This document shows positions 26,919 to 64,000 of a stretch of DNA of 64,000 nt, piece after piece. The stretch is from positions 312,241-376,240 of the forward strand of contig JBEKVT010000001.1 in assembly GCA_049997795.1 (NCBI GenBank). Reading direction: 5' to 3'. Each line of letters opens with the position of its first letter. Position 1 is the first letter of the stretch. The DNA comes from Minisyncoccia bacterium. GTDB taxonomy: Bacteria > Patescibacteriota > Minisyncoccia > Phycocordibacterales > PALSA-1337. Both the position numbers and the translations under genes were made by a program. The notes under the pieces were generated by a model. It did not search any database. It was not told where the DNA came from and worked only from the letters and a program-made list of their open reading frames with translations.

Positions 26919-28082
26919 ATGGAGACATTGAAGTACGAAAACCTGAGGCAGCGCCGCATCCTCATATTCTCGCTCGTATACTATCCGAACATGATCGGCG
27001 GGGCGGAGGTGGCCGTCAAGGAGATCACCGACCGCATCTTCACCAGGAAGATCATCTTCGACATGATCACCTTGGGCGAAGGCCGGCAGATGACGGAAGA
27101 AGTTGTAGGCAACGTCAACGTCTTCCGCATCTTCAAGAAGATCGGCACTGTCCAAAAGATGCTCTTCCCGTTCGCCGCCTTCTATCTTGCGACCAAGCTC
27201 AACAGCGAGCGTCCCTATGATGCCGTCTGGTCCATCATGGCAAGCTACGCCGGCCTCTCCGGAGTCTTGTTCAAAAAGGCCCATAAGGACGTCCCGTTCA
27301 TCCTGACCGTCCAAGAAGGCGACCATTTCGAACGGCGCGAAGGGCTGTTCGGCCCGATGTTCCGGATGATCTTCAAGGCTGCCGACCGCATCCAGGCCAT
27401 CTCCGCATTCCTAGCGGATTGGTCGAAAAAGATGGGGGCCAAATGCCCGATCACGGTCATCCCGAACGGCGTCGATTACGAGGCCTTCTCGAAGCCCATC
27501 GACGAAGCGACCAGGCATAGGCTCCGGTCCGATGACGGCTTCGCCGACTCGGACAAGGTCATCCTGACGACGGGCCGCTTGGTCGACAAGAACGCCGTCG
27601 ATGACATCATCAAGTCCCTCCAATATCTGGACGGATCGTACAAGCTGGCCATCTATGGGGCAGGCGAGAACGAGACCGAGCTCCGGGACCTCGCCGCCGA
27701 GCTCCAGGTCTCCGAGCGCGTCTTCTTCATGGGCTTCGTGCCGCACTCGGCTCTTCCCGACTGCCTTAAGGCCGCCGACGTCTTCGTCAGGCCCTCCCGC
27801 ACCGAGGGCCTCGGCAACTCTTTCCTCGAGGCCATGGCCGCCGGCACTCCCGTCGTCGGCACGCCCGTGGGCGGCATCCCGGATTTCTTGACTGACGGCG
27901 AGACCGGCCTCCTTTGCGAAGCCGACAACCCGAGATCGATAGCCCAAAAGATCGAGAAGTTCGTCAAAGACGGCGAGTCCCGCGGATACATCGTGAGGAA
28001 AGCGCGGGAGATGGTGGCCGAAAGATACCGATGGGAAGGCATCGCCGCCAGGATGGAAGCCATCCTCGAAATGCGCGGCTAG
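26919..28082 (+). CDS. glycosyltransferase family 4
   Basis: GT-B fold, C-terminal EGLGNSFLEAMAAGTPVVGTPVGGIPDF motif (E-x7-E region). Confidence 0.75.
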   Translation: METLKYENLRQRRILIFSLVYYPNMIGGAEVAVKEITDRIFTRKIIFDMITLGEGRQMTEEVVGNVNVFRIFKKIGTVQKMLFPFAAFYLATKLNSERPYDAVWSIMASYAGLSGVLFKKAHKDVPFILTVQEGDHFERREGLFGPMFRMIFKAADRIQAISAFLADWSKKMGAKCPITVIPNGVDYEAFSKPIDEATRHRLRSDDGFADSDKVILTTGRLVDKNAVDDIIKSLQYLDGSYKLAIYGAGENETELRDLAAELQVSERVFFMGFVPHSALPDCLKAADVFVRPSRTEGLGNSFLEAMAAGTPVVGTPVGGIPDFLTDGETGLLCEADNPRSIAQKIEKFVKDGESRGYIVRKAREMVAERYRWEGIAARMEAILEMRG

Positions 28083-28105
28083 CGGAATGTGGTAGACTCT
28101 CTTCC

Positions 28106-29149
28106 ATGAGGATCCTAATCGCCTCCGGCATATACCCGCCAGACATCGGCGGATCCGCCCAATACGCTTATAACCTATATGAGACCTGGAAACGGCAGGG
28201 CCACCAGGTCAAGGTCGCCGCATACCGCTGGGAGAGGGCCGTGCCGTCGCCCTTGAGCAATCTCCTCTATCTCACCAAGGTCCTGAGGAAGGCCTGGCGG
28301 GCCGACCTTGTGCTCGTCCTAGACACATGGAGCGCCGCGGTGCCGGCCATGATGGCCTGTGCCATCCTGAGGAAAAGATATATCCTCCGGACCGGCGGCG
28401 ACAGGCTGTGGGAGGCATACGCGGAACGGACCGGCGAACCGGTCCTATTCAAGGATTTTTACGCCTCGAAGATCGACCCGGCGCTCAGCCGATTGTCATC
28501 CAAGGAAAGGATGATATGGAAATACGGCGGCATGGCCTTGCGCAAGGCGGCTGCCGTCATCTTCAGCACCGAGTGGCAGAGGCAGACTTTCGAGAAGGCC
28601 TACGGCCTCTCTCCCAAGAAGACATCCATCGTCGAGAATTTCTACGGCCGGAAAGAGAAGCCTTCGGAACCGGCCGGCCGGGCCTTCGTCTCCGGCGCGC
28701 GCGAGATCAAGTTGAAGAACGCCGATCGGCTGAAGAGCGCTTTCAAGACGGCCAGGGCCGAAGCCGCGAGGAAGGGCTTCGCCGACATCGACCTCGATAC
28801 CGGCAAGGCCGTATACGATAATTTCGTCGAGAAGATACGCCGGGCTTACGCGGTCGTCGTGCCGTCGCTCTCGGAGATGAGCCCGAACATGGCGCTGGAC
28901 GCTATCCGCACCGGCACCCCATTCATCCTGACCAAGGAGACCGGCATCGCCGATAGGGTCAAGGATGTCGCCGTCTTCATCGATCCCTTGGATGAGCGCG
29001 ACATAGCGGACAAGATCCTCTGGATGGCCGATCCCCTCAATCGGGCGGCGCAAGCCGAGAAGATCGAGCGCTTCTCCTTCGAGCATTCCTGGGAGGAGAT
29101 CGCGAGGGAGATAATCAAAGTCGCCAAGAGGACTGCCTATAGATCATGA
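28106..29149 (+). CDS. glycosyltransferase (GT4-like)
   Basis: Start moved to MRILIASGIYPPDIGGSAQYA (28106); the track ORF extends upstream into the previous gene. GT-B architecture. Confidence 0.6.
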   Translation: MRILIASGIYPPDIGGSAQYAYNLYETWKRQGHQVKVAAYRWERAVPSPLSNLLYLTKVLRKAWRADLVLVLDTWSAAVPAMMACAILRKRYILRTGGDRLWEAYAERTGEPVLFKDFYASKIDPALSRLSSKERMIWKYGGMALRKAAAVIFSTEWQRQTFEKAYGLSPKKTSIVENFYGRKEKPSEPAGRAFVSGAREIKLKNADRLKSAFKTARAEAARKGFADIDLDTGKAVYDNFVEKIRRAYAVVVPSLSEMSPNMALDAIRTGTPFILTKETGIADRVKDVAVFIDPLDERDIADKILWMADPLNRAAQAEKIERFSFEHSWEEIAREIIKVAKRTAYRS

Positions 29150-30168
29150 CGGACGCCGCGGACCAAAGGCCGAGAAGGCTCCTTTCGATCGGCACCGACC
29201 GGTCGATATTCGAGGAAGGCAGCGCCGTCCGCCTGAGGCAGATCGAATACGCCAAGAAGTGGGACGAGGTCCATATCGTCGTCTTCGCCGGCCGGGACTT
29301 CACGGAACAGCAGATCTCTGCGGATTGCTTCATCTATCCGACGCGCTCCGGATCCAAGCCGCTCTATCCCTTAGGCGCCATGAAGCTCGGCCGCTCCATC
29401 ATAAGGAGCCGCGGCATCACGGACATAACCTGTCAGGACGCTTCGTTCACGGCCATGGCCGGCGCCTATCTTGCGAAACGGTTCGGCCTGCCGTTCGAGA
29501 TCCAGGTGCACGAGGACATCGGCAGCCCGCGCTACGCTTTCAATATGAAGAACAGGATCCGCAAGGCCCTGGCCGCGAGGTACGTGCGCAGGGCCGATAC
29601 GATCCGAGTCGTCTCCGAGCGCATCAAGAGATATCTCGTCGGGGCCCTGGGCGTCGAAGAGCGGAAGATAACGGTCAGGCCGATCGTTGTCGATACGGGC
29701 CTCATCAGGGCCGCGCCGGTCATCCCGTCGGCCGACCTCCGCAAGAAGTACCCGCAGTTCCAGAAGATCGTCCTCATGGCCTCGCGGCTGGAGCCTGAGA
29801 AGAATATTTTGCTTGCGATCGCTTCATGGCCGGAAGTCATGAAGCGCTTCCCGGGAGCGGGCTTGGTGATCGTCGGCAGGGGAAGCGAGCGGCCGGAGCT
29901 CGAGGCCGCCGTCTCTAGGTCCGACCTCGCCCTTGCGATCGTCTTCGAGGACTGGGCCGACAAGGCGACGCTCTACTCGTACTACAAGACCGCCGACCTC
30001 TTCCTGAACACTTCCATCTTCGAGGGCTACGGCATGGCTTTGGTCGAAGCGCTTGCAGCCGGTTGCAAGGCCGTTTCGACCGACGTCGGCGCCGCCCGGG
30101 AATCCGGAGCGATCATGACCGAACCGGACCCCCAAGATGTTGCTAAAACGCTAATCAGAGCGTTATAA
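29146..30168 (+). CDS. glycosyltransferase family 4
   Basis: FEGYGMALVEALAAGCKAVSTDVG GT4 C-terminal motif. Confidence 0.7.
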   Translation: MTDAADQRPRRLLSIGTDRSIFEEGSAVRLRQIEYAKKWDEVHIVVFAGRDFTEQQISADCFIYPTRSGSKPLYPLGAMKLGRSIIRSRGITDITCQDASFTAMAGAYLAKRFGLPFEIQVHEDIGSPRYAFNMKNRIRKALAARYVRRADTIRVVSERIKRYLVGALGVEERKITVRPIVVDTGLIRAAPVIPSADLRKKYPQFQKIVLMASRLEPEKNILLAIASWPEVMKRFPGAGLVIVGRGSERPELEAAVSRSDLALAIVFEDWADKATLYSYYKTADLFLNTSIFEGYGMALVEALAAGCKAVSTDVGAARESGAIMTEPDPQDVAKTLIRAL

Positions 30169-30177
30169 TGCCCGACT

Positions 30178-31062
30178 ATGAAAAAACCCGGAAAATCGGG
30201 AAAACCGCTCATCGGCTTCATCGGCCAGGGCTGGGTAGGCAGGAGCTATGCCGATGATTTCGAGGCTCGCGGCCACGCCATAGTGCGCTACGGCCTGGAA
30301 GCGCCTCACAAGGATAATAAGGCGAAGATCGCCCTCTGTGACATCGTCTTCATCGCCGTACCGACCCCGACCACGCCGCAAGGCTTCGATGACAGCGCCA
30401 TCCGCGCCGTCCTGCCGCTAGTCGGGAAAGGCAGGATCGCCGTCATCAAATCGACCCTGGTCATGGGCCGGACCAAGCTGCTCCAGAAGGCTCACCCCGA
30501 CATACTCCTCCTCCATTCCCCCGAATTCCTGAGCGAATCGACGGCCGCCCATGACGCCGCCAATCCCCACAGGAACATCATCGGCATACCGCGAAAGACG
30601 GAAGCCCACAGGAAGGCGGCGGAGATCGTCCTTGCCGTCCTGCCCAAGTCTCCCTATGAGATGATATGCTCTTCCGACGAAGCCGAATTCATCAAATACT
30701 CGCATAACGTGCACGGCTACATCCAGGTTGTCTTTTCGAACATCCTCTATGACCTGGCTAAGCCGTTCGGCCTCGACTGGGAAACGCTTTCCGAGGCCAT
30801 CAAGGCCGACCCGATGATGTCGCACCACCGGTATATGAATCCGGTCCACAAGAAGGGCCGAGGCGCCGGCGGCCACTGCTTCATCAAGGACTTCGAAGCC
30901 TTCGTCGCCCTGACGCGCGCCGCCCTGCCTGACAAGAAGACCATCGCCATGCTCGAAGCCATCCGCGACAAGAATATCGATCTTTTGCTCGGCTCCGGCA
31001 AGGATGTCGACCTCCTGGAAGGCGTCTACGGCAAGGCCGTCACGGCCCGTCGCCTTAAATAA
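30178..31062 (+). CDS. UDP-glucose/GDP-mannose dehydrogenase family protein, short form lacking the C-terminal UDP-binding domain
   Basis: 294 aa; N-terminal IGFIGQGWVG Rossmann, NPEFL-type segment HSPEFLSEST, catalytic-Cys segment GAGGHCFIKD. The family is normally ~400-450 aa. Confidence 0.55.
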   Translation: MKKPGKSGKPLIGFIGQGWVGRSYADDFEARGHAIVRYGLEAPHKDNKAKIALCDIVFIAVPTPTTPQGFDDSAIRAVLPLVGKGRIAVIKSTLVMGRTKLLQKAHPDILLLHSPEFLSESTAAHDAANPHRNIIGIPRKTEAHRKAAEIVLAVLPKSPYEMICSSDEAEFIKYSHNVHGYIQVVFSNILYDLAKPFGLDWETLSEAIKADPMMSHHRYMNPVHKKGRGAGGHCFIKDFEAFVALTRAALPDKKTIAMLEAIRDKNIDLLLGSGKDVDLLEGVYGKAVTARRLK

Positions 31063-31065
31063 GCC

Positions 31066-31512
31066 ATGCCGGGCCGGTTCGCCATAACTTATTCCGCCCT
31101 CGACGAACGCTACCCGGCCCAGATGAGATTCCTGCGCTTCCTCATATCGGGAGGCACGGCCGCCGTCGTCGATCTCCTCTTCCTGTATGTCCTCACGGAC
31201 GGCATCCATATGTGGTATCTGCTCTCGAGCGTCCTGGCCTTCCTGGCGGCCTTCTCGGTGAGCTTCACTCTGCAGAAGCGCTGGACCTTCCGCGACCGCT
31301 CGAACGACCGCCTGCATGTCCAAGCTCCGGTCTACTTCGCCATAACGGCCGTCAACCTCGGCCTCAACACCCTGCTCATGTACGCCTTCGTCCATTACTT
31401 CGGGATCCAGTATATGGTCTCGCAGATCATAGTCGGAGCCCTGATCGCCGTCGAGAGCTATTTCGCCTATAAGATGCTCGTGTTCAGGGCCCCGTCGCTA
31501 CCGCCGTCATGA
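31066..31512 (+). CDS. GtrA-family membrane protein
   Basis: 148 aa, 4 TM; RFLRFLISGGTAAVVDLLFLY typical GtrA N-terminus. Confidence 0.7.
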   Translation: MPGRFAITYSALDERYPAQMRFLRFLISGGTAAVVDLLFLYVLTDGIHMWYLLSSVLAFLAAFSVSFTLQKRWTFRDRSNDRLHVQAPVYFAITAVNLGLNTLLMYAFVHYFGIQYMVSQIIVGALIAVESYFAYKMLVFRAPSLPPS

Positions 31513-32561
31513 AGATACTCATAGTCACCCAAAAGATCGACAAGAATGACGGCTATTTCGGCTTTTTCCATGACTGGCTCATAGAGTTCGCCAAAAGATG
31601 CGAGCGGGTGACAGCGATAGGCCTAGAAGTCGGCGCCTACGATCTGCCGGGAAACGTCAAAGTCTATTCGCTCGGCAAGGAAGCCGGCCGGTCGCGTTTG
31701 AAATACGCCTATCGTCTCCTGGCTTATTCGTGGCGAGAGAGGAAAGATTACGACGCGGTCTTCGTGCATATGAACCCGCCTTACCTCATCGTCGGCGGCT
31801 GGCTCTGGAGGCTGCTCGGCAAGAAGATCGGCTTTTGGTACTTGCACCGCAACGTCGACCTGAAGCTCCGTATCGCCGCCGTCCTGGCCGACGATATCTT
31901 CTCGGCCGCGCCCGAGAGCTTCCGCCTGAAGAGCAAGAAGATCCATTTCATGGGCCAGGCCGTGCCGCTTCCAAGATACGCCAGGCCGGCCGGATTCAAA
32001 AGATCGTCCGGAGAGCCGTTCACGATCGTCTCGGTCGGGCGCATCACGCCCATCAAGAATCTCGATACGCTCATCGAGGCCGCGTCTATTTTGAGAGGCC
32101 GGGGCGTGGCCGTACGCGTCGATCTCGTCGGCGAACCGGTGACGCCGGCCGACCAGGAATATAAGGAGGGATTGGTCGAGCTCATAGATAAGAAAAGCCT
32201 CGGCCCGACCATGAATTTTGTCGGCAGCGTGCCGAACAAGGACATCCCATCCTGGTATTGGAAGAGCGACTTGTCGGTCAATCTCTGCCCGACGGGCGGG
32301 CTCGACAAGGCGGTGCTCGAGTCCATGGCCGCCGGCACGCCTGTCATGGCGTCGAACGAAGCTTTCAGGGAATACTTCGGCGGATATGGAGGCCGGATGA
32401 TGTTCAAGGAACGCGACCCGGCCGACCTGGTCGCCAAGCTGGAAGCCTTCATGAGAGCCGGCGACAAAGCCGCCATCGCGTCCAAACTGCTCGCGGAAGC
32501 CCAAAAAAGGTCCAGCCTCTCGGCGCTCGTAGGGAAGATAGTGGAGATATTAGGCAAATGA
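31509..32561 (+). CDS. glycosyltransferase family 4
   Basis: GGLDKAVLESMAAGTPVMAS GT4 motif. Confidence 0.7.
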   Translation: MKILIVTQKIDKNDGYFGFFHDWLIEFAKRCERVTAIGLEVGAYDLPGNVKVYSLGKEAGRSRLKYAYRLLAYSWRERKDYDAVFVHMNPPYLIVGGWLWRLLGKKIGFWYLHRNVDLKLRIAAVLADDIFSAAPESFRLKSKKIHFMGQAVPLPRYARPAGFKRSSGEPFTIVSVGRITPIKNLDTLIEAASILRGRGVAVRVDLVGEPVTPADQEYKEGLVELIDKKSLGPTMNFVGSVPNKDIPSWYWKSDLSVNLCPTGGLDKAVLESMAAGTPVMASNEAFREYFGGYGGRMMFKERDPADLVAKLEAFMRAGDKAAIASKLLAEAQKRSSLSALVGKIVEILGK

Positions 32562-32640
32562 AGGCCAGCCGACTGGCGATCGCCGAGAATATCGTCCGCG
32601 TGCTCTCCGAGGCCTAACCTGCTACATTAATAGTGCGCTT

Positions 32641-33258
32641 ATGGCCCAAGTCGACAAGAAAAGCTATAGTCTTCGCGGTTATTCCCAGCCGGAGCGTTGG
32701 GTAAGCTACGGCTCCCAGCTCCGGACGGCCCTCGACCTCGAGCCCGAAAGCGTCCTGGAAGTCGGGGTCGGAGACAAGGTGTTCGGCAGCTATATAAAGA
32801 ACAATACAAATATCTCTTACAAGAGCGTCGACATCGCCCTCGATCTCGCTCCGGATATCGTAGGCGACGTCCTCAAGCTCCCGTGCGCCGACCGGTCATT
32901 CGACGTCGTCTGCGCCTTCGAGGTCCTGGAGCATGTGCCATTCGCCGATCTCGACCGGGCCTTGGGCGAGCTCGACCGGGTCTCGCGCCGCCATGCCGTC
33001 ATAAGCCTGCCGCATTTCGGGCCGCCGGTCCGATTCCTCCTCAAGCTGCCGTTCTTGCCTTACTTCCGTCTGGCTTTCAAGCTGCCGTATCCGAAGGAGC
33101 ATGCCTTCAACGGCCAGCACTACTGGGAGATGGGGAAGCGGGGCTATCCGGCACGGAAGGTGAGAGAGATCATCCGCCGCCATTTCCAGATCCGCCGGGA
33201 ATTCGTGCCGTTCGGGAGCCCGTACCATCATTTTTTCGTGCTCGATAAGAGATCATGA
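32641..33258 (+). CDS. class I SAM-dependent methyltransferase
   Basis: Motif I VLEVGVGDK and post-I DVVCAFEVLEHV (Methyltransf_11-like). Confidence 0.65.
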   Translation: MAQVDKKSYSLRGYSQPERWVSYGSQLRTALDLEPESVLEVGVGDKVFGSYIKNNTNISYKSVDIALDLAPDIVGDVLKLPCADRSFDVVCAFEVLEHVPFADLDRALGELDRVSRRHAVISLPHFGPPVRFLLKLPFLPYFRLAFKLPYPKEHAFNGQHYWEMGKRGYPARKVREIIRRHFQIRREFVPFGSPYHHFFVLDKRS

Positions 33259-34025
33259 AGCGATTCATCAAAGACGGCCTGTTCACCCTGCTCAACGCCT
33301 TTTCCGGCGGCCTGGACGGCCGGGCCAGCATCCTCATGTACCATGCCGTGGCGAAAGACGACAGATTCTTCACTGTGGAGCCGGAGGCCTTCGAGCGACA
33401 GCTCTCATATCTCAAAAAGAACGGCCTCGAGATCGTGAAGCTCTCTCGGCTCTTGGACAAGATGGCGAAAGGACAAGCTGTCTCCCGCTCCGTCGTGCTC
33501 TCGTTCGACGACGGATATCGTGACAACTATGCGACCGTCTTCCCGCTCCTCAAGAAGTACGGCTTCCAGGCCACGATCTTCGTCGTGACCGGCTCTTTGG
33601 GCAAGAAGCCCGGGATGATGTCCGAATCCCAGATCCGCGAGATGCAGACGAGCGGTCTGGTCGAATTCATGCCGCATAGCAGGAGCCATCACGATCTCGA
33701 CCGTCTGCCTTTGGCCGAAGCGGCCCGCGAGATCGAGGCGTCCAGAGACGATCTGGAGATGCTTTTGGGCGGCCCGGCCGATATCTTTGCTTATCCCCGC
33801 GGGCGCTTCACGCCGGAGCTGGAACAGTATCTCCGATCCCATTCCTTCCGCGCGGCCGTGACCGTGGAAGAAGGGCTGGTGACCCTGAAGACGGATCCTT
33901 TCCGTCTGCCGAGGAATTCTATCGACAGCACTACCACCGATATACAATTCAGAGGCAAGGTCTCCGGCGCTATCTCGCTGTATGTCCGCTTCAAGGCCTT
34001 TTTCAAACCAAAGCGCCATGTCTGA
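33255..34025 (+). CDS. polysaccharide deacetylase (NodB homology domain)
   Basis: SFDDGY catalytic motif, HSRSHHDL His motif. Confidence 0.7.
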   Translation: MKRFIKDGLFTLLNAFSGGLDGRASILMYHAVAKDDRFFTVEPEAFERQLSYLKKNGLEIVKLSRLLDKMAKGQAVSRSVVLSFDDGYRDNYATVFPLLKKYGFQATIFVVTGSLGKKPGMMSESQIREMQTSGLVEFMPHSRSHHDLDRLPLAEAAREIEASRDDLEMLLGGPADIFAYPRGRFTPELEQYLRSHSFRAAVTVEEGLVTLKTDPFRLPRNSIDSTTTDIQFRGKVSGAISLYVRFKAFFKPKRHV

Positions 34026-34656
34026 TTTCATCCGACAGGTATTCGCAGGGAAGACGATCGGGCGCATCCTCTTCAACCGGCAGGCGGCCCTCCGGTGCAA
34101 GGATTTGAAGGGCGAGGTCCTCGATGCCGCCGGAGGCGGCGGGGGAAGCTATCTCCGCTATATCCCGAATGATGCGGCCGTGACCCGCGTCGACGCCAAG
34201 GGTGGCCCGGGCGTCGACAAGGTCATAGATCTCAACAAGAAGCTGCCTTTCGTCGACCGCTCGTTCGATGCCATCCTATTTTTCAATGCCATCTATATCA
34301 TTCGCGATCGCAAACAGCTTTTTCAGGAATTCAGGCGCATCCTCAAAGATGCCGGTGCTTTGTTCCTCTCTTCGTCCTTCATATATAATGAGATGCCCGA
34401 GCCCCACGATTACTGCCGTTTGACCAAAGAAGGCCTGGAGGAAGAGCTCCACAGCGCGGGCTTCGCCGATGTAAGCGTATGGCGCTACGGCGAGCGCTTC
34501 ACCGCCGCGGCCTCTCTCTTGTCTCCGTTCTTTGTTTTCAATACTATCCGTTTGTTCGCCTATTCTTTGGCCGTCTTGGCCGACCGCTGCATACCCGGGT
34601 CTCTCAAAGAAAGGCATCCCGCTCCGCTCGGATACTTCTCGATAGCCCGCAAATGA
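34018..34656 (+). CDS. class I SAM-dependent methyltransferase
   Basis: VLDAAGGGGGSY motif I, FDAILFFNAIYII motif; start set to MSDFIRQVF (34018). Confidence 0.55.
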   Translation: MSDFIRQVFAGKTIGRILFNRQAALRCKDLKGEVLDAAGGGGGSYLRYIPNDAAVTRVDAKGGPGVDKVIDLNKKLPFVDRSFDAILFFNAIYIIRDRKQLFQEFRRILKDAGALFLSSSFIYNEMPEPHDYCRLTKEGLEEELHSAGFADVSVWRYGERFTAAASLLSPFFVFNTIRLFAYSLAVLADRCIPGSLKERHPAPLGYFSIARK

Positions 34657-34672
34657 CCAGCCATCCGATCGC

Positions 34673-35815: not shown

Positions 35816-35834
35816 ACTGATAAGCTGATAGACC

Positions 35835-39129: not shown

Positions 39130-39137
39130 CAAAAATA

Positions 39138-41714: not shown

Positions 41715-41717
41715 GGT

Positions 41718-52884: not shown

Positions 52885-52891
52885 TATCACC

Positions 52892-57549: not shown

Positions 57550-58563
57550 ATGAAAACAGATTTCCTCAAAGGCAAGACAGTCCTCATAACCGGCGGCACG
57601 GGCTCGTTCGGCTCGAGCTTCAGCCGCTTCCTCCTAGAGAATTCCAAGATAAAGAAGCTCATCATCTTCTCCCGGGACGAATTCAAGCAGTTCCATCTCC
57701 AGAAGGAATTCGCCGAAGACGGCCGGGCCCGCTTCTTCCTGGGCGACGTGCGCGATCTACAAAGGCTCGAGAGGGCCTTCCACGGCGTCGACATCGTCGT
57801 CCACGCCGCGGCCCTGAAACAGGTCCCCATGCTCGAATACAACCCGTTCGAAGCGGTCAAGACCAACATCCTCGGCACCCAGAACGTCATCGACGCGGCC
57901 ATCGACTGTGGCGTGGACAAGGTCCTCCTCATCTCGACCGACAAGGCCGCTCAGCCGGTCAACCTGTACGGCTCGACCAAGCTCTGCGCCGAGAAGCTCG
58001 TCACCAACGGGAACTTCTTCGGGCGCGGCGCCACGAAGCTGAGCTGCGTCCGCTACGGCAATGTAATGGGGAGCCGCGGCAGCGTCGTCGAGATGCTCCT
58101 CAAGGAACCAAACCGGAAGATCGTAGAGATCACCGACATCGAGATGACCCGTTTCTGGATCACCCTGGAGCAGAGCTTCGAGCTCGTCCTCTTCGCCCTT
58201 TCGAACATGGAAGGCGGCGAGATCTTCGTGCCGCGCATCCCGAGCATGAAGCTTGTCGACCTGTTCTCGGCCTTGGCGCCCAAGGCCAAGAGGGAAGTCA
58301 TCGGCGTCCGGGCCGGCGAGAAAGTCCACGAGGTCCTCCTCACCCGCGAAGAGTCGCGCCATTCCATCGAATTGCCGGACTATTACGTCATCCTGCCGCA
58401 TTATGACGAAGAGATCTTCTCGATGAAAGACCGCTACAAGAAGCTCCTCGCCATGGGCGAGAAGCTCGAGGCCGGTTTCCATTACGCAAGCGATACCAAC
58501 TCCATGTGGCTTACCAAGAAAGATTTCGCGGCTCTGCTCAAGAAGAGCAAGGCTCTCAACTAA
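57550..58563 (+). CDS. pseB: UDP-N-acetylglucosamine 4,6-dehydratase (inverting), PseB/FlaA1 family
   Basis: GKTVLITGGTGSFG, DKAAQPVNLYGSTKLCAEKL (Polysacc_synt_2 / PseB signatures), ~330 aa. Confidence 0.8.
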   Translation: MKTDFLKGKTVLITGGTGSFGSSFSRFLLENSKIKKLIIFSRDEFKQFHLQKEFAEDGRARFFLGDVRDLQRLERAFHGVDIVVHAAALKQVPMLEYNPFEAVKTNILGTQNVIDAAIDCGVDKVLLISTDKAAQPVNLYGSTKLCAEKLVTNGNFFGRGATKLSCVRYGNVMGSRGSVVEMLLKEPNRKIVEITDIEMTRFWITLEQSFELVLFALSNMEGGEIFVPRIPSMKLVDLFSALAPKAKREVIGVRAGEKVHEVLLTREESRHSIELPDYYVILPHYDEEIFSMKDRYKKLLAMGEKLEAGFHYASDTNSMWLTKKDFAALLKKSKALN

Positions 58564-58564
58564 C

Positions 58565-59644
58565 ATGCCAAATAGTAGACAAGAGCGCTTCCCGAAGAGG
58601 ATCAAGATCGGCAACCGCTGGATCGGCGAAGGCGAGCCGGCTCTCATCATGGCCGACCTGGGCGCGAACTTCGATGGCAGCCTGGAAAAGGCCAAAAAGC
58701 TCGCCCTGGCGGTCAAGGAAGCCGGCGGCGACGTGGTCAAGATCCAGAGCTTCCTGGCGGACAAGATAGTCTCAGGCAAGGCCTTCGCCTCGATGAAATT
58801 GAAGGGCATCCACGGCTCCTGGGGCCGGCCGATCGAAGAGATCTTCAAGGAAGCCGAGTTCCCGAGGAAGTGGCACAAGGAATTCTTCGATTATTGCAGG
58901 AAGATCGGCATCGCCGTGTCGTCTTCGCCTTATGATTTCGAAGCCGTTGACCTCATGGAAGAGGCCGGCGTCGATTTCTACAAGATCGGCTCAGGCGACA
59001 TCACTTGGCACGAGATGCTCGAATACATCGCCAAGAAGGGCAAGCCGATGATCCTGGCGACGGGCGCCGCCACGCTCGCCGAGGTCGACGAGGCCGTCAA
59101 GGTCATCGAGTCGACCGGCAACAACGACCTGGTCCTCCTCCAGTGCATCACCAACTATCCTTCGAAGATCGAGAGCGCCAACATCAAGGTCATGGATATG
59201 TACGCCGAGGCCTTCGGCACCATCATCGGATATTCCGACCATACGCCGGGCGATACGGTCGTCCTGGGCGCCATAGCGAGAGGCGCCAAGGTCATCGAGA
59301 AGCATTTCACCCTGAACAAGAAGGACAAGGGTCCGGACCATCCTCACTCGATGGAGCCCAAGGAGTTCGCTCTCATGATGAAGCGCATCCGCGACATGGA
59401 GATAGCCCTCGGCACCGGCCGCAAAGAGGTGGTGGCCGAAGAGTTCGAGACGGTCATCGTCCAGCGCCGCGGCCTGTGCGCCCGCAAGGATCTTTCCAAG
59501 GATACCGTGCTTAAAATCTCCGATATCGTCGAGCTGCGTCCGGCCCTCGGCATACCGCCCAAGTGGAAGACCGTCGTCGCCGGCAAGAAGCTCAAGAGAT
59601 CCAGGAAGGCCGGCGAGCCGATAAGATGGGAAGATCTAGCGTAA
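58565..59644 (+). CDS. pseI: N-acetylneuraminate synthase-family nonulosonic acid synthase (PseI/NeuB/LegI) with C-terminal SAF domain
   Basis: IGEGEPALIMADLGANFDGSLEKAK, KIGSGD, GYSDHTPG motifs of NeuB family. Which nonulosonic acid it makes cannot be told by eye; the symbol is by context. Confidence 0.75.
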   Translation: MPNSRQERFPKRIKIGNRWIGEGEPALIMADLGANFDGSLEKAKKLALAVKEAGGDVVKIQSFLADKIVSGKAFASMKLKGIHGSWGRPIEEIFKEAEFPRKWHKEFFDYCRKIGIAVSSSPYDFEAVDLMEEAGVDFYKIGSGDITWHEMLEYIAKKGKPMILATGAATLAEVDEAVKVIESTGNNDLVLLQCITNYPSKIESANIKVMDMYAEAFGTIIGYSDHTPGDTVVLGAIARGAKVIEKHFTLNKKDKGPDHPHSMEPKEFALMMKRIRDMEIALGTGRKEVVAEEFETVIVQRRGLCARKDLSKDTVLKISDIVELRPALGIPPKWKTVVAGKKLKRSRKAGEPIRWEDLA

Positions 59645-59655: not shown

Positions 59656-60243
59656 ATGACGGATCGCGAAAAATTCTTCGTGCTCCTATCTAACCTCCCG
59701 CTCAAGAAAGGGGAGGCCATCTTCCTCTTGGAAGGCGACGGTTACAATCGGGTGGCGCATGCCGCGAAGCTATACAAGCAAGGCCACGCCCCGAAGATAG
59801 TCATAACCGGCGGGGCCGTGAAGAGGGAATACGGCAGCTACCCCGCCTCGGAGCTCGAGATAGAGCTCCTCAAGCTCGGCATCCCCAAGGCAGACATAAT
59901 GCTCGAAGAGACCGCCGCGCACACGAGAGCGGAAGCGGACCGGGCCATGGAGATCGCGCGGGAGAACGGCTGGAAGATCATACTTGTGGCCACCTCGGCG
60001 CATCACCAATATCGCGCTTTCCTCACCTTCCTCAAGGCTATGCACGCGGCGGACATGGATATAATGATAATCAACGCGCCGGCTCGAGACCTTCCTTGGT
60101 TCAGCCTGAATCCGTGGGGAAAAAGGGCCGATCTCTTGGCCGAGGAGATGGAGCGCATCTTCGCTTACCAGGAAAAGGGCGACGTGGCAGGCTTCTCCGA
60201 AGGCATCAGATACCTGGAGCGGCTCGAAAAGGCGTCAAAATAA
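59656..60243 (+). CDS. DUF218/YdcF-like (SanA/ElyC-type) protein
   Basis: GDGYNRVAHAAKLYKQGHAPKIVITGG and VATSAHHQYRA segments typical of DUF218. Start set to MTDREKFF. Confidence 0.45.
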   Translation: MTDREKFFVLLSNLPLKKGEAIFLLEGDGYNRVAHAAKLYKQGHAPKIVITGGAVKREYGSYPASELEIELLKLGIPKADIMLEETAAHTRAEADRAMEIARENGWKIILVATSAHHQYRAFLTFLKAMHAADMDIMIINAPARDLPWFSLNPWGKRADLLAEEMERIFAYQEKGDVAGFSEGIRYLERLEKASK

Positions 60244-60891
60244 ATGGATATAAAGGAAGCGAAAAAGCTGTTCGGCAAGAACTTCGTCGGCCCGGAAGAG
60301 CTCGGGACTATCTCGAGCCGGCTCGGCATTCCTTCACCAGCAAGCCTCGGTCCGACTCCGAAGGTGTCTTTTTCGTCGACAGTCCTTAAAAAAGCCGCCG
60401 CCGATCACATCCTCATCCTGGGAATCCCGACCGATGCTAAGGGCGGAAGGCTCACCCTCGGTGCGATGCGCGCGTTCCTAGGCGTCGATCCGTCGAAGTC
60501 GGAGCCCTGTTTCTATAACCAGGACTGGTATCTGAAAGAGCCGTTCGCTTCGGAGCGGACGCTCGACTACAAGTGGTATTTGATCAAAAGAAACGTGGCC
60601 GACGAGACGCGCGCCATGGATCCTCTCGATCTCGAGAAAGACCTCGATAAGAGCGCCAGGTTCCCCTCGGCCATCCTGACCGCCTTCACTTTCTTCGCCT
60701 ATCATTTTGTGAACGGCGGCGAGACGCTCTGGAAGAACGATTTCATCTGGTGCGACGACAAGGATTTGAACGGCGATCGCATCTATACGGGTCGCTATGT
60801 CGACCCCAAGGGCATAAACAAGAACGGCTTCAATGTCCACCGGCACCTGTCGCTCAAGGAGAATTATGGAGCCGCTCCGGAGGTGGTATAG
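60244..60891 (+). CDS. hypothetical protein (215 aa)
   Basis: ORF in operon context, no motif recognised. Confidence 0.35.
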   Translation: MDIKEAKKLFGKNFVGPEELGTISSRLGIPSPASLGPTPKVSFSSTVLKKAAADHILILGIPTDAKGGRLTLGAMRAFLGVDPSKSEPCFYNQDWYLKEPFASERTLDYKWYLIKRNVADETRAMDPLDLEKDLDKSARFPSAILTAFTFFAYHFVNGGETLWKNDFIWCDDKDLNGDRIYTGRYVDPKGINKNGFNVHRHLSLKENYGAAPEVV

Positions 60892-60904
60892 TTCGATCAT
60901 CATC

Positions 60905-62224
60905 ATGGATAATAAGAAAACAGGAAAATCACAACAGCTCTGGCGCAAAGCCAAGAAGCTCATCCCGGGCGGCAGCCAGTTATTGAGCAAGCGGGCGGAG
61001 ATGTTCCTGCCGGAGCAGTGGCCGGCCTATTACAAGAAAGCCAAAGGCGCGGAGGTGACCGATCTCGACGGCAAGAAATACATAGACATGTCGCTCATGG
61101 GCGTGGGCGCCTGCGTCCTCGGATATGCCGACCCGGACGTGGACAAGGCCGTGAAGAAAGCCATAGACGCCGGTTCGATGTCGACGCTCAACGTCCCCGA
61201 GGAAGTCGAATTGGCCGAGCTCCTCATCTCCCTACATCCATGGATCGAGATGGTCCGCTACGCCCGGACCGGCGGGGAAGCCATGGCCGTGGCCGTGCGC
61301 ATCGCCCGGGCTTACTCGAAGAAGTCGAAGGTCGCCTTCTCCGGCTATCACGGCTGGCACGACTGGTACCTCTCGACCAACATCGGCGCCAAGGACAATC
61401 TGGCCGGCATCCATCTCGCCGGCCTAGAGCCTAGCGGCGTGCCCAAGGAGCTCAAGGATACTTCGATCCCTTTCCATTACAACGACATCGAGAGATTGCG
61501 CGCCATCGTCAAGGAGCACGACATCGGCGCGATCGTCCTCGAGCCGATGCGCCACCAGGAGCCTAAGGACGGTTTCTTGCAGGAAGTCAGGAAGATCGCC
61601 GACCGGATCGGGGCGGTCTTGGTCTTCGACGAGATCTCTTCCGGTTTCAGGATGCAGGTTGGCGGCATCCACGCGAAGTTCGGAGTGACGCCCGACATCG
61701 CCGTCTTCGGCAAGGCCATGAGCAACGGCTATCCCATGGCGGTCATCACCGGCAAGAAGCGCTTCATGGAAGCGGCCCAAGGAACGTTCATAAGCAGCAC
61801 ATACTGGACGGAGAAGATCGGACCGGCGGCCGCTCTCGCCACCATAAAGAAGATGCAAGAGAAAGATGTCCCGGCGCATATCGACAAGATCGGCAAGATG
61901 ATATGGAAGGGCTGGGAACAAGCGGCCAAGAAGCACGGGCTCGGCATCGTCGTCGAAGGGCCGACCGCCTTGGTCAATTTCGCTTTCAAATACAAGAATG
62001 TCCTGGAATTGAAGACCCTCTTCACCCAGGAGATGCTCCGGCTCGGCTTCCTGGCGGTCCCGATCGTCTACGTGAGCTACGCCCACACCGAAGAGCACGT
62101 CAAGAAGTATCTCGCGGCCGTAGACGAAGTCTTCGGGATCCTGGTTAAGGCTATAAAAGACGGGAACGTCCGCGGGAAGATCGACGGCCCGGTCTGCCAC
62201 GGCGGCTTCGAGCGCCTGACATGA
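60905..62224 (+). CDS. class III (glutamate-1-semialdehyde 2,1-aminomutase-like) PLP aminotransferase
   Basis: GGSQLLSKRAEMF..., YARTGGEAMAVAVRIARAY, FDEISSGFR, FGKAMSNGYPMAVI (PLP-lysine) HemL-like signatures. Start at MDNKKTG. Confidence 0.7.
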   Translation: MDNKKTGKSQQLWRKAKKLIPGGSQLLSKRAEMFLPEQWPAYYKKAKGAEVTDLDGKKYIDMSLMGVGACVLGYADPDVDKAVKKAIDAGSMSTLNVPEEVELAELLISLHPWIEMVRYARTGGEAMAVAVRIARAYSKKSKVAFSGYHGWHDWYLSTNIGAKDNLAGIHLAGLEPSGVPKELKDTSIPFHYNDIERLRAIVKEHDIGAIVLEPMRHQEPKDGFLQEVRKIADRIGAVLVFDEISSGFRMQVGGIHAKFGVTPDIAVFGKAMSNGYPMAVITGKKRFMEAAQGTFISSTYWTEKIGPAAALATIKKMQEKDVPAHIDKIGKMIWKGWEQAAKKHGLGIVVEGPTALVNFAFKYKNVLELKTLFTQEMLRLGFLAVPIVYVSYAHTEEHVKKYLAAVDEVFGILVKAIKDGNVRGKIDGPVCHGGFERLT

Positions 62225-62958
62225 AGACCGTCGCCGTCATCCAGGCCCGCATGGGCTCGACGCGCCTCCCCGGGAAGGCGATGATGGAGATCCTCGGCAA
62301 GCCGGTCGTCCATTACGTATTCGAACGCGCCAAACAAGCGAAAGCCCTCGACGGAGTCTGGCTGGCGACGACCGTCGATCCGTCCGACGATGTGCTGGCG
62401 GCCTGGGCGGATAAGCAAAAGATCCCTTGTTATCGCGGCTCAGTCGAAGACGTGCTCGACCGTTATTATCAGGCGGCAAAAAAAGCCGGAGCCGATATCG
62501 TGGTCCGGCTGACGGGTGATTGTCCCTTGCTCGACCCCGGAGTGATAGACAGGGCAGTCAGCGAATACAAGAAGAGAGGCTGCGATTATCTCTCCACCGG
62601 CAGGCTGACCTCGACATTTCCGGACGGCCTCGATACGGAAGTCTTTTCTTTCGGCATCCTTGAAAGGGCCTGGAAAGAAGCCAAGATTAAGTCAGAACGC
62701 GAGCACGTCACCCCGTACGTCTGGAAGCACCCGGAGCTCTTCGAGGTCGCCGCCATCGACAACGACACCGACCTATCCAAGGAGCGTTGGACCATAGATA
62801 CCGCCCAGGACTTCGGATTGATAAAGAAGATCATCGAGTGGAGCGACGAGCACGGATCGGCGACCGACATGGCTTCGGTCATGAAGACTCTGGCCTCTCA
62901 TCCCGAATGGCGGGAGATGAACAGCGGGATCAAGAGGAACGAGGGCTATATTGAGTAA
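62221..62958 (+). CDS. cytidylyltransferase, SpsF/PseF-like (second paralog)
   Basis: VAVIQARMGSTRLPGKA, LTGDCPLLD; paralogous to 52892-53656. Confidence 0.65.
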   Translation: MKTVAVIQARMGSTRLPGKAMMEILGKPVVHYVFERAKQAKALDGVWLATTVDPSDDVLAAWADKQKIPCYRGSVEDVLDRYYQAAKKAGADIVVRLTGDCPLLDPGVIDRAVSEYKKRGCDYLSTGRLTSTFPDGLDTEVFSFGILERAWKEAKIKSEREHVTPYVWKHPELFEVAAIDNDTDLSKERWTIDTAQDFGLIKKIIEWSDEHGSATDMASVMKTLASHPEWREMNSGIKRNEGYIE

Positions 62959-62982
62959 TCGGCGCATATAAGATACTATGAT

Positions 62983-63008
62983 GGGCGCTTCCGATTAACA
63001 GAGCGCCC
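62983..63008 (+). terminator. 7-bp GC hairpin (GGGCGCT...AGCGCCC) without a clear T-tract
   Basis: Hairpin directly after the cytidylyltransferase stop; weak as an intrinsic terminator. Confidence 0.25.
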
Positions 63009-63026
63009 TCTGAACATCATACATAC

Positions 63027-64000
63027 ATGTCAAAAATAGCCCGCTACGTCTCTTTGGCCTCGCTCTTCCTCATCCCGATCTTCCCGCTCATCGTCATCGA
63101 CCAGCTGTTCTTCCCGTTCATCACCGGCAAGGCCTTCTATTTCCGCCTGCTCGTCGAGGCCGCCTTCGCCGGCTGGCTCGTCCTCTGTTTCCTTGACGCT
63201 AAGTACCGCCCGAAATGGAATGCCCTCACGATCGGCGTCTCGGTCTTCGCCTTGGTCACTCTGGCCGCCGACCTCCTCGGCGTCAATCCCTTGCGTAGCC
63301 TCTGGTCGAACTTCGAGCGCATGGAGGGCTGGATCACCGTCATCCACCTGTGGGCCTTCTTCATGGTGGCCTTGAATGTCTTCGGTCCCGGCGAGGAGGG
63401 GAAGATCCTGTGGCGCCGCTGGTTGAACTTCGAGCTCTTGGTCGCCATTCTGGTCGGTTTCTATGGTCTTTTCCAGCTGTTCGGCTGGGCCGCCATCCAC
63501 CAAGGCTCCGTCCGCATCGACGCCTCTCTAGGGAACGCCGCATACATGGCCGTTTACATGCTCTTGAACGCCGGCATCGCAGCCTACCTATTCTTCTCCG
63601 CGCGCGCGCGAAAAGCCGCCCGGGCCGGATTCCTGAATTGGTATTATCCCATACTGGCCGTCTTCTTCTCGTTCCTCTTGATCGAGACCGCCACTCGTGG
63701 CACCATCCTCGGATTGGTCGGCGGCATCATGCTCGCTCTCCTCGTCTACGCCGTCTTCGGCAAGGGCCAGTCGATCGGATCGCGCCGCATCTCCGGCGGT
63801 GCGGTCAGCCTCCTCGTCATCCTGGGCGTCGCCTTCGTTCTCTTGCGGCACCAGCCTTTCATACAGAAAAACCCCATCCTCGGCCGCATGGCCAGCATCT
63901 CCCTGTCATCGGACGAGACTACCGCCAGGCTCTACGTCTGGTCCATGGCTTTGACCGGTTTCGTCGAACGCCCGGTCCTCGGCTGGGGGCAGGAGAACTT
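63027..64000 (+). CDS. polytopic membrane protein, possible O-antigen ligase/polymerase-like (partial, runs off window end)
   Basis: Hand translation MSKIARYVSLASLFLIPIFPLIVIDQLFFPFITGKAFYF... shows >8 hydrophobic helices and is open to 64000. Absent from the track for lack of a stop codon. Confidence 0.35.
   Translation, partial: MSKIARYVSLASLFLIPIFPLIVIDQLFFPFITGKAFYFRLLVEAAFAGWLVLCFLDAKYRPKWNALTIGVSVFALVTLAADLLGVNPLRSLWSNFERMEGWITVIHLWAFFMVALNVFGPGEEGKILWRRWLNFELLVAILVGFYGLFQLFGWAAIHQGSVRIDASLGNAAYMAVYMLLNAGIAAYLFFSARARKAARAGFLNWYYPILAVFFSFLLIETATRGTILGLVGGIMLALLVYAVFGKGQSIGSRRISGGAVSLLVILGVAFVLLRHQPFIQKNPILGRMASISLSSDETTARLYVWSMALTGFVERPVLGWGQEN

Follow-up and report, generated by a model that had tools for sequence, protein, structure and literature searches.

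A large surface-glycan locus in a Minisyncoccia bacterium and its genes for a probable sialic-acid-like sugar

What does a bacterium with a very small genome build when it sets aside a large locus for surface carbohydrates? The question arises for the Candidate Phyla Radiation (CPR, Patescibacteria), whose members are mostly uncultured, have tiny genomes, and in many cases live attached to host cells. To our knowledge, almost nothing is known of the chemistry of the CPR surface, which presumably mediates attachment, phage recognition, and host specificity. We analyzed a 64,000-nucleotide stretch of DNA from a Minisyncoccia bacterium (positions 312,241–376,240 of contig JBEKVT010000001.1, assembly GCA_049997795.1); this whole stretch is referred to as the window, and positions are counted from its first nucleotide. 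Positions 26919–64000 are a large surface-glycan locus, in which genes for nucleotide-sugar synthesis, glycosyl transfer, methylation, deacetylation, export by an ATP-binding cassette (ABC) transporter, and Wzy_C-type transfer form a co-localized, intact, and conserved set. We give a probability of about 0.72 to the view that the organism's main cell-surface glycoconjugate is encoded here, in a locus by which a nonulosonic acid is made and a glycan is assembled, exported, transferred, and decorated. The product probably contains a sialic-acid-like nine-carbon sugar; the steps that would follow the first dehydratase reaction are proposed from family resemblance and gene order.

All long open reading frames (ORFs) between 25 and 64 kb were translated and scanned with the profiles of Pfam and NCBIfam. 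The glycan locus comprises 38 genes, with 98.6% of the interval coding, and falls into three strand blocks: block 1 on the forward strand (26919–39129), block 2 on the reverse strand (39138–49618), and block 3, again forward, from 49749 to beyond the end of the window. On the parent contig, the last gene of block 3 runs from 63027 to ~65210 and is followed by murB and secA. A preliminary description, made from the letters of the sequence, had already recognized a large surface-glycan locus, and annotation of every ORF with hidden Markov models reproduced nearly all of its family calls, including each of its seven methyltransferases. What it took for one mostly co-directional block is indeed contiguous but not of a single direction; where it counted five GT4 glycosyltransferases there are six, and it had missed a dehydrogenase-like gene (30178), a gene for a protein of 182 amino acids (aa; 42915), a DUF218 gene (59656), and a gene for a 215-aa protein (60244).

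JGI contig Ga0427927_000007 (657,439 bp) contains a sequence identical to the window, and identical proteins are deposited at NCBI under the name “Minisyncoccia bacterium” (MGC9605522-33, locus tags ABSF56_02055-02115). The host is an uncultured peat bacterium of the Minisyncoccia with a small genome, represented by a metagenome-assembled genome (MAG); the protein names at NCBI, the 657-kb contig, and the genes upstream of the locus, which are those of a fermentative CPR bacterium, bear out the small-genome organism supposed at the outset. The locus, with ~38 kb, takes up ~6% of that contig. Independent assemblies (ENA, Logan, and other JGI samples) that extend across both strand-switch junctions are identical to the window or differ by 1 base in 18,855; because they agree across both junctions, the block is not chimeric, a possibility that had been raised earlier. 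The content of guanine plus cytosine (GC) is even (0.51–0.61), with a minimum of 0.51 at 38000–40000, compared with ~0.58 elsewhere; the minimum spans the end of a 571-aa gene and methyltransferases 4 and 5, and the convergent stop codons between them are 8 bp apart, with no terminator-like hairpin in between. This dip at the convergent junction would speak for a chimeric assembly or for an island of foreign DNA acquired recently, which is nevertheless very improbable in view of the agreement among the assemblies, a GC content that elsewhere matches that of the flanks, and the origin of the closest homologs of many genes from CPR bacteria.

The nonulosonic acid genes of the window

Among the nonulosonic acid genes, one step can be assigned firmly by sequence comparison. 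The product of the gene at 57550..58563 is PseB, an inverting 4,6-dehydratase of UDP-N-acetylglucosamine (UDP-GlcNAc): it passes the equivalog cut-off of TIGR03589 (436 bits > 407.75), with residues 6–328 matching profile positions 2–322 of 324, and scores far higher on the PseB model than on FnlA or LegB. Inverting dehydratases of the PseB type commit UDP-GlcNAc to L-series sugars leading to pseudaminic acid, so that the sugar is expected to be of the pseudaminic rather than the legionaminic type.

Block 3 would convert UDP-GlcNAc to a pseudaminic-type nonulosonic acid activated with cytidine monophosphate (CMP). In the proposed pathway, the PseB product would be aminated at C4 by a DegT-family sugar aminotransferase (54698..56023; DegT_DnrJ_EryC1, 280.1 bits; best on PseC, TIGR03588, 204.3 < 423.5), by a class-III, HemL-like aminotransferase dependent on pyridoxal phosphate (60866..62224; Aminotran_3, 152 bits; PRK06209, 275.8 < 486; hemL, TIGR00713, 224.5 < 527.3), or by both. 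The amine would be acylated by a GNAT N-acetyltransferase that is a candidate for the role of PseH (56066..56608; Acetyltransf_3, 82.8 bits; PseH, TIGR03585, 36.2 < 93.1; best NCBIfam match spermidine acetyltransferase, 61 bits), possibly together with a FemAB/GNAT-like acyl (or aminoacyl) transferase (51802..52884; TIGR04421, 57.1 < 250; Acetyltransf_6, E 0.0038, sub-threshold). Once the nucleotide has been removed, the remaining 6-deoxy-hexosamine would be condensed with phosphoenolpyruvate by a NeuB-family synthase of a divergent clade (58565..59644; NeuB, 278.7 bits, plus SAF), and the product would be activated with cytidine triphosphate by a cytidylyltransferase of the SpsF type. Two such enzymes are encoded, CT_a (52862..53656; CTP_transf_3, 102.6 bits; PseF, TIGR03584, 36.5 < 205.7) and CT_b (62221..62958; CTP_transf_3, 122.2 bits; PseF, 31.1 < 205.7), which are both named SpsF by JGI and share 37% identity. 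The second of them, together with a GFO/IDH/MocA sugar oxidoreductase (53678..54688; GFO_IDH_MocA, 77.8 bits), may serve further tailoring or the formation of a second activated sugar.

Several results weigh against so specific an account. The NeuB domain of the synthase is full length, but its scores remain below the cut-offs of both NeuB_NnaB (302.4 < 399.65) and PseI (286.1 < 340.25) in NCBIfam and are marginally better on the NeuB model; moreover, the equivalog cut-offs of PseC, PseH, PseG, PseI, and PseF are all missed, and the sugar could be another nonulosonic acid. Of the complete pseudaminic-type pathway claimed in the preliminary description, the PseB step stands; the candidates for PseC, PseH, PseI, and PseF are far under the cut-offs, and there is no signal for PseG. 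A complete canonical pseudaminic acid pathway is plausible but not established. The labels KpsS/C-like, FemAB-like, HemL-like, and SpsF-type are fair as resemblances: judged by its scores, the class-III aminotransferase is not HemL itself, and the FemAB label likewise denotes a similarity only.

A conserved gene pair downstream of the synthase in CPR bacteria

The closest relatives of the synthase (71–79% identity) are all encoded in Patescibacteria MAGs. A tblastn comparison of these loci recovered in synteny the pair of a helix-turn-helix (HTH) protein and an ABC exporter, PseB, NeuB, DUF218, the 215-aa gene, cytidylyltransferase, class-III aminotransferase, and the gene of a 511-aa protein; the neighborhood of the window is recovered across these loci collectively, with every gene together in none of them. 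The comparison with related bins that had been proposed earlier shows a syntenic nonulosonic acid core in Patescibacteria, and homologs of the core carry the names of Niyogi-, Portnoy-, Staskawicz-, Zambryski-, Falkow-, Uhr-, Magasanik-, Kuenen-, and Buchananbacteria. Its conservation across many CPR lineages suggests that a sialic-acid-like sugar is common on CPR surfaces. Such a sugar would offer handles for labeling, sorting, and visualizing CPR cells, by metabolic labeling with azido sugars, derivatization with 1,2-diamino-4,5-methylenedioxybenzene and high-performance liquid chromatography (DMB-HPLC), lectins, or antibodies. A literature search combining CPR, Patescibacteria, Parcubacteria, or Saccharibacteria with pseudaminic, nonulosonic, or sialic acids or neuB returned nothing relevant, which agrees with the earlier statement that such loci have not been characterized in these lineages.

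The synthase gene of the window is followed by genes for a DUF218 (YdcF/ElyC-family) protein (59656..60243; DUF218, 63.1 bits) and for the 215-aa protein, which represents a new family (60244..60891). A metagenome profile scan with the alignment of the 215-aa family yielded 335 relatives, from which 80 loci were kept. DUF218 lies directly upstream of the 215-aa gene in 61 of 61 loci with enough sequence, and NeuB lies upstream of DUF218 in 47 of 48. Gene content was counted in the 23 loci flanked on each side by 5 kb or more of sequence: a cytidylyltransferase is present in all 23, an aminotransferase in 22 (DegT in 19, class-III in 12, both in 9), and a PseB homolog in 21, but a GNAT in only 6 and a homolog of the 307-aa protein encoded upstream of PseB in the window in only 5.

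The module is most condensed in tight six-gene operons that consist of PseB, cytidylyltransferase, aminotransferase, NeuB, DUF218, and the 215-aa gene (loci L098, L031, L065, L078, and L093-L095). PseB of these compact operons reaches 508 and 526 bits on the PseB model; their synthases, like that of the window, are below the NeuB and PseI cut-offs, and their aminotransferase is either class-III or a DegT protein with its highest score, 212 bits, on LegC. Neither an acetyltransferase nor a PseG-like protein was among ten flanking proteins that were sampled in four compact loci, and a crude scan for hexapeptide repeats, which is a weak test, found an acetyltransferase-like ORF near only 2 of 17 loci that have the trio of NeuB, DUF218, and 215-aa genes and lack GNAT plus the 307-aa protein. 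As judged from their gene content, the compact operons are usually without a recognizable PseG or PseH.

The 215-aa protein has no sequence match in Pfam, NCBIfam, or the PDB. Its family has 24 invariant positions in 70 sequences, 1563 homologs at E ≤ 0.001 in a protein collection clustered at 90%, and 1003 clusters at the same threshold in an exhaustive search of representatives; among the matches listed, every homolog with an organism name comes from a lineage of the CPR or from a “bacterium” without classification, and the annotation is “hypothetical” throughout. AlphaFold2 predicts a confident model (predicted local distance difference test [pLDDT], 94.3) with what seems to be a remote fold of the type of formylglycine-generating enzyme (FGE) or C-type lectins, and a Foldseek search of the model against the PDB gave nothing significant. 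A Cys-His acyltransferase substituting for PseH, conjectured from conserved Cys, His, and Asp residues, was rejected, the model having neither a NAT nor a GNAT fold. A distant subfamily (P0309, P0340, P0349-P0390; E 1e-14 to 1e-33; 260–340 aa) carries an N-terminal extension of ~65 aa, which in P0309 contains a zinc-ribbon motif.

In one relative (P0242, 424 aa), a DUF218 domain and a 215-aa domain are fused, and this fusion and the conserved pairing of the two genes indicate that the two proteins act together. Our best guess is that the pair supplies the step of UDP release, which elsewhere is catalyzed by PseG. A broader proposal, that DUF218 and the 215-aa protein form a two-part enzyme, sometimes fused, that replaces PseG (and perhaps also the acylation by PseH) in a six-gene pathway present across the CPR, is tentative, and we would rather bet against it. 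If it is true, new enzymology provides many Patescibacteria with a sialic-acid-like sugar on their surface; in either case, the 215-aa family, with its more than 1000 clusters, and the DUF218 proteins found beside it are candidates for steps of nonulosonic acid synthesis. A literature search for “DUF218” with “neuB” retrieved only coincidental matches. In the literature that we searched, we found no description of a pathway of this kind in CPR bacteria, of the NeuB–DUF218–215-aa module and its fusion, or of compact operons lacking a recognizable PseG or PseH.

The window itself complicates the proposal: it holds the GNAT and the 307-aa protein as well as the DUF218 pair, and if both sets supply the same steps they look redundant, which weighs against the account given here. 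For the 307-aa protein (56592..57515), AlphaFold2, run with a 75-sequence alignment, predicts a confident GT-B fold (pLDDT, 95.1), and a His-Pro pair is invariant in the family. There is no match to PseG or any other curated family in NCBIfam and Pfam; none of the 75 members matches a PseG-type (Glyco_tran_28 C-terminal) domain, whereas 13 weakly match the α-2,8-polysialyltransferase family PF07388. In an hhalign comparison with the family of the 511-aa protein, the His-Pro regions align (E 2.7e-4, probability 42%). A search of the PDB with the family profile found nothing, and single-sequence searches of the PDB with the 307-, 215-, and 203-aa proteins gave nothing useful. The 307-aa protein may be either a nucleotide-sugar hydrolase in the role of PseG or a sialyltransferase-like transferase, and its family affiliation leans to the latter.

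These results bear on a more conventional assignment, in which the DegT, GNAT, 307-aa, PseB, NeuB, and SpsF-type proteins would be PseC, PseH, PseG, PseB, PseI, and PseF, respectively, and DUF218, the 215-aa protein, the class-III aminotransferase, the GFO oxidoreductase, the FemAB-like protein, and the second cytidylyltransferase would only tailor the product or make a second sugar. The gene order DegT–GNAT–307-aa–PseB–NeuB indeed mimics pseC–pseH–pseG, and the unit of CT_a, GFO, DegT, GNAT, and 307-aa genes stays together in six other loci (L027, L032, L084, L086, L089, and L096). In a Legionella O-antigen cluster (PMC3694923), the genes for GNAT, PseG, a class-III aminotransferase, and a cytidylyltransferase likewise lie together. 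The leaning of the 307-aa family toward polysialyltransferases rather than PseG, the alignment of its His-Pro motif with that of a KpsC/S-like protein, and the majority of trio loci, in which PseB, an aminotransferase, and a cytidylyltransferase are kept but GNAT and the 307-aa protein are lacking, all argue in the opposite direction, and we put this assignment at appreciably less than an even chance.

The compact operons also revive the question of the identity of the sugar. A different or new nonulosonic acid, or a free-amine or unusually acylated derivative, formed by a CPR-specific clade of NeuB, would be in keeping with synthases that fall below the NeuB and PseI cut-offs both in the window and in the compact operons and with the class-III or LegC-leaning DegT aminotransferases of the latter; the extra genes of the window for a GFO oxidoreductase, a FemAB-like protein, and a second cytidylyltransferase point the same way. 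However, PseB passes its equivalog cut-off both in the window and in the compact operons (436–526 bits), and a sugar outside the pseudaminic type appears doubtful.

Individual loci show further peculiarities. Downstream of the trio in the compact locus L031 lie genes for a methyltransferase and for a radical S-adenosylmethionine (SAM) protein with B12-binding and TPR repeats (L031:6616-8271), a hint that in some lineages the glycan undergoes C-methylation or another radical reaction. In L064/L066 (11973-13988), the class-III aminotransferase is directly followed by a 671-aa ORF in which a DegT-type aminotransferase and a GT2-like segment appear to be fused; this ORF and may be a fusion enzyme or the result of a missed stop codon. 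A second, distant NeuB paralog (28–36% identity) lies near the first in L007/L036, L058, L061, L084, and L097; some of these bacteria may make two different nonulosonic acids. Finally, a 5.5-kb contig binned as “uncultured Gammaproteobacteria” (L011, CAZXOU010000057.1) encodes a trio 53–67% identical to that of the window, which reflects either mis-binning or a transfer outside the CPR.

Assembly, export, and decoration of the glycan

Block 3 starts with the gene of an 83-aa DNA-binding protein (49749..50000; HTH_17, 38.8 bits), which is preceded in the divergent intergenic gap by a sigma-70-like promoter on the forward strand (49679-49706; TTGACA-16-TATACT, 11/12 positions, extended -10 TG); this consensus match is the best sigma-70-like site within the region of 38.9–50.2 kb. 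The next gene (49994..51787) encodes an ABC exporter, a half-transporter of the MsbA/PglK/HepA type, in which transmembrane and nucleotide-binding domains are fused (ABC_membrane, 40.3 bits; ABC_tran, 117 bits; HepA_fam, 358.6 < 725; MsbA, 317.8 < 602; PglK, 214.5 < 1000). The pair of HTH protein and exporter is kept beside nonulosonic acid genes in several related CPR loci, and the exporter would flip the glycan across the membrane.

The divergently oriented gene on the other side of the gap (48083..49618, reverse strand) encodes the 511-aa protein, a GT-B protein resembling KpsC/S and polysialyltransferases. It has weak matches to Capsule_synth (KpsC/S; PF05159, 17.6 bits, under the Pfam cut-off of 20; E 0.0028), a Bacteroidetes glycosyltransferase domain (BFO_1060 glycosyltransferase, E 1e-4), and a Leptospira surface-carbohydrate family. 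Its family has 508 matches, the top 120 of which share 56–66% identity, and the named members represent at least nine candidate phyla of the CPR; many homologs carry PF05159, two have polysialyltransferase matches, and one is named as a polysialyltransferase-family glycosyltransferase. The motifs PLQ...E and K-x-HP are invariant and can be aligned with KpsC (6mgd), although only at E 0.03. In the KpsC/S and polysialyltransferase families, the His-Pro motif contacts the phosphate of the CMP-sugar donor. The His-Pro-motif GT-B enzymes are predicted to add the nonulosonic acid, with the 511-aa protein as the leading candidate.

The gene that closes the operon (63027..64000 in the window, continuing to ~65210) encodes a 727-aa membrane protein with 12 hydrophobic helices, a Wzy_C domain (68.2 > 31.7 bits), and TPR repeats (TPR_19, 46.7 bits; both scored on L001:15478-17661); only its 5' part lies in the window. 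Enzymes of the Wzy_C family, to which O-antigen ligases and O-oligosaccharyltransferases belong, join glycans from a lipid carrier to a lipid A-core or protein acceptor, and this enzyme would transfer the exported glycan to an acceptor, such as a pilin, an S-layer protein, or a wall or lipid anchor, unless the glycan remains in the membrane as a lipoglycan.

The six GT4 enzymes would assemble the glycan itself on a lipid carrier, on the cytoplasmic side of the membrane. Four of them are encoded at 26919..28082 (a; Glycos_transf_1, 144.7 bits; Glyco_transf_4, 53.8 bits), 29146..30168 (c; Glyco_trans_1_4, 93.6 bits; Glyco_transf_4, 46.9 bits), and 34673..35815 (e; Glyco_trans_1_4, 72.1 bits) in block 1 and at 41718..42908 (f; Glyco_trans_4_4, 37.6 bits; Glycos_transf_1, 27.8 bits) in block 2. 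Two further enzymes in block 1 are GT4-like with weaker matches: one at 28106..29149 (b; Glyco_transf_4, 42.9 bits; Glycos_transf_1, 25.2 bits, slightly under the cut-off; start as in the public gene call) and one at 31509..32561 (d; Glycos_transf_1, 73.6 bits, in the C-terminal half only). Block 2 also encodes WecB, a non-hydrolyzing UDP-GlcNAc 2-epimerase (40578..41714; TIGR00236, 387.5 bits, cut-off 210.15).

Phospho-alditol would be added by two enzymes encoded in block 2. One is a TagB/F-like CDP-alditol phosphotransferase (43944..45191; Glyphos_transf, 30.2 bits > 22.1; residues 184–366, matching only the C-terminal part of the profile); the other is a small cytidylyl- or adenylyltransferase similar to TagD and RfaE domain II (43477..43929; CTP_transf_like, 65 bits), for which the model of RfaE domain II (104.4 < 181.5) outscores that of TagD (glycerol-3-phosphate cytidylyltransferase, TIGR01518, 69 < 165.4), so that it is assigned at the level of the CTP_transf_like family only. 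Between the TagD-like gene and GT4 gene (f) sits the gene of the 182-aa protein, which gives only weak barrel-like signals of the pyruvate kinase/HpcH kind (42915..43463; HpcH_HpaI, E 0.0027, and PK, E 0.016, both sub-cut-off; PDB pyruvate kinase, E 0.056) and may take part in making the activated phospho-compound used by the TagF-like enzyme.

Some features of the locus fit less well with the assembly scheme and lower our confidence in it. The locus contains no initiating phosphoglycosyltransferase of the WecA or WbaP type, and neither a Wzx nor a Wzy polymerase was recognized in it. The product of the dehydrogenase-like gene (30178..31062, 294 aa; UDPG_MGDP_dh_N, 58.6 bits; UDPG_MGDP_dh, 48.5 bits; TIGR03026, 107.7 < 189.8) has only the N-terminal and central domains of UDP-glucose/GDP-mannose dehydrogenases; there is no remnant of the C-terminal UDP-binding domain downstream, and the same short form occurs in independent assemblies. 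The protein may be inactive or, alternatively, represent a novel short form. The one Glycos_transf_4 gene near the locus (18985-20112) was considered as the initiating transferase and rejected, as it is MraY in a mur cluster and not WecA.

The missing initiating transferase is also the starting point for another view of the acceptor. Instead of a protein glycan, a membrane lipoglycan or teichoic-acid-like polymer could be started directly on a phospholipid by a KpsC/S-like enzyme, in the manner of group 2 capsules, and exported by the ABC transporter, and the lack of a polyprenyl-phosphate initiating transferase in the locus, the two KpsC/S-like His-Pro-motif enzymes, the exporter conserved beside nonulosonic acid genes in CPR bacteria, and the TagD-like and TagF-like genes are consistent with it. 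The Wzy_C+TPR gene at the end of the operon and the exporter, which is of the fused MsbA/PglK type and not KpsMT, speak against it, and an initiating enzyme may lie elsewhere on the 657-kb contig; a lipoglycan of this kind is conceivable, although we do not expect it.

Whatever its acceptor, the glycan would be decorated by seven SAM-dependent methyltransferases and a NodB-type polysaccharide deacetylase (33255..34025; Polysacc_deac_1, 90.5 bits). Methyltransferases 1 (32641..33258; Methyltransf_11, 39.4 bits), 2 (34018..34656; Methyltransf_11, 34.4 bits; start as in the public gene call), and 3 (36524..37417; Methyltransf_23, 108.8 bits) are encoded in block 1, and methyltransferases 4 (39138..39854; Methyltransf_25, 63.7 bits), 5 (39844..40581; Methyltransf_11, 31.9 bits), and 6 (45188..45877; Methyltransf_25, 34.2 bits) in block 2. 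The seventh, also in block 2, is part of a 735-aa fusion (45879..48086) of a Trm112-like zinc ribbon (Trm112p, 23.4 bits), the methyltransferase domain (Methyltransf_11, 60 bits), and a C-terminal region of ~350 aa with faint α/α-toroid-type matches (Pec_lyase, LANC_like, and C5-epim_C, all sub-cut-off), an unusual architecture for a glycan-modifying enzyme. That the glycan is O- or N-methylated is an inference, and so is any choice among the acceptors proposed at the outset (S-layer, pilin, capsule, or teichoic-like polymer).

A second kind of decoration may take place outside the cell. Proteins of the GtrA family are flippase-like for polyprenyl-phosphate sugars, and block 1 encodes a small membrane protein of this family (31066..31512; GtrA_DPMS_TM, 91.5 bits, cut-off 26.1, full profile; ~4 hydrophobic helices), a soluble GT2 glycosyltransferase of the size of GtrB or Dpm1 (35835..36548; Glycos_transf_2, 97.9 bits), and a 571-aa polytopic membrane protein (37414..39129). 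The latter has no match in Pfam or NCBIfam and is GT-C-like in architecture only, with ~8–10 hydrophobic helices, at least eight of them in residues 1–380, and a soluble C-terminal tail of ~190 aa. By analogy, the three proteins would fit the three-part logic of glycan decoration outside the membrane and would modify the glycan on the outside of the cell.

Upstream of the locus, regions 1883–10208 and 13631–20112 encode pyruvate:ferredoxin oxidoreductase, the large subunit of a NiFe hydrogenase, pyruvate phosphate dikinase (PPDK)/phosphoenolpyruvate synthase, glycerate kinase (DUF4147/MOFRL), MurD, MurC, and MraY, a gene set typical of a fermentative CPR bacterium with peptidoglycan; a tRNA-Ile(GAT) gene lies at 10221–10295. 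A protein with a DUF4015 “putative glycosyl hydrolase” domain (23237–24454, forward strand; 286.9 bits), encoded ~2.5 kb upstream of the locus, may be linked to glycan turnover. The gene that is separated from the first GT4 gene by a single base (25034–26917, forward strand) encodes a 627-aa P-loop ATPase, whose matches to TrwB/VirD4/TraG coupling proteins and to the HerA type suggest a DNA-transfer or secretion ATPase.

Comparison with known systems

The nonulosonic acid genes of the window resemble, in their composition, the pseudaminic acid pathway of Campylobacter jejuni and Helicobacter pylori, with a cluster of PseB, an aminotransferase, a GNAT, a NeuB-family synthase, and a CTP_transf_3 cytidylyltransferase. 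They differ in that only PseB reaches the level of an equivalog, the synthase forms a separate clade, the cytidylyltransferases are of the SpsF type, and no PseG homolog was detected in the window; in CPR bacteria, the synthase is accompanied by DUF218 and the 215-aa protein, and a class-III aminotransferase can replace the enzyme in the position of PseC. The sps operon of Bacillus subtilis (SpsC, DegT; SpsD, GNAT; SpsE, NeuB; SpsF; SpsG) reportedly provides legionaminic acid for the spore crust. It shares with the window the combination of DegT, GNAT, NeuB, and SpsF-type cytidylyltransferase beside a TagF-like gene in a monoderm; by contrast, the window has an inverting PseB, DUF218, the 215-aa protein, a class-III aminotransferase, a GFO oxidoreductase, and the ABC exporter and Wzy_C protein, and no SpsG/PseG-type protein was detected there.

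The O-antigen cluster of Legionella pneumophila serogroups 6/12, according to the gene tables in PMC3694923, places a GNAT, a “PseG”, a class-III “glutamate-1-semialdehyde aminomutase”, and an acylneuraminate cytidylyltransferase next to each other. Nonulosonic acid loci that combine a class-III aminotransferase with a cytidylyltransferase are therefore not confined to the CPR; unlike in the window, no counterpart of DUF218 or the 215-aa protein is found in the gene tables of that study, which describe a Wzm/Wzt ABC-dependent lipopolysaccharide (LPS) locus of a diderm (PMC3694923).

The PLQ...(D/E)AS and K-x-HP motifs and the coupling to an ABC exporter are features that the 511-aa protein has in common with KpsC and KpsS of Escherichia coli and Neisseria and with the GT38 polysialyltransferases; it remains below the Pfam threshold, however, and the exporter is of the MsbA/PglK type instead of KpsMT. 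KpsC and KpsS are the β-Kdo (3-deoxy-D-manno-oct-2-ulosonic acid) transferases of group 2 capsules, whereas the predicted donor of the 511-aa protein is a CMP-nonulosonic acid and not CMP-Kdo or CMP-N-acetylneuraminic acid (CMP-Neu5Ac). The occurrence of GtrA, a soluble GT2, and a large polytopic protein in one block recalls GtrA/GtrB/GtrC of the gtr clusters of Shigella and Salmonella phages and the similar logic of ArnC/ArnT, except that the genes in the window are not adjacent (31066, 35835, and 37414) and no GT-C family is recognizable in the sequence of the membrane protein.

The Wzy_C-domain polytopic protein that closes the nonulosonic acid operon is comparable to the O-oligosaccharyltransferases PglL and TfpO (PilO) and the ligase WaaL but differs from them by its long C-terminal TPR domain. 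The pilin of Pseudomonas aeruginosa 1244 is said to carry an O-unit that contains pseudaminic acid, and we know of no CPR bacterium that makes LPS. As a type, the locus is largely ordinary bacterial glycobiology, and within it lies a form of nonulosonic acid biosynthesis that extends across the CPR and had not been described.

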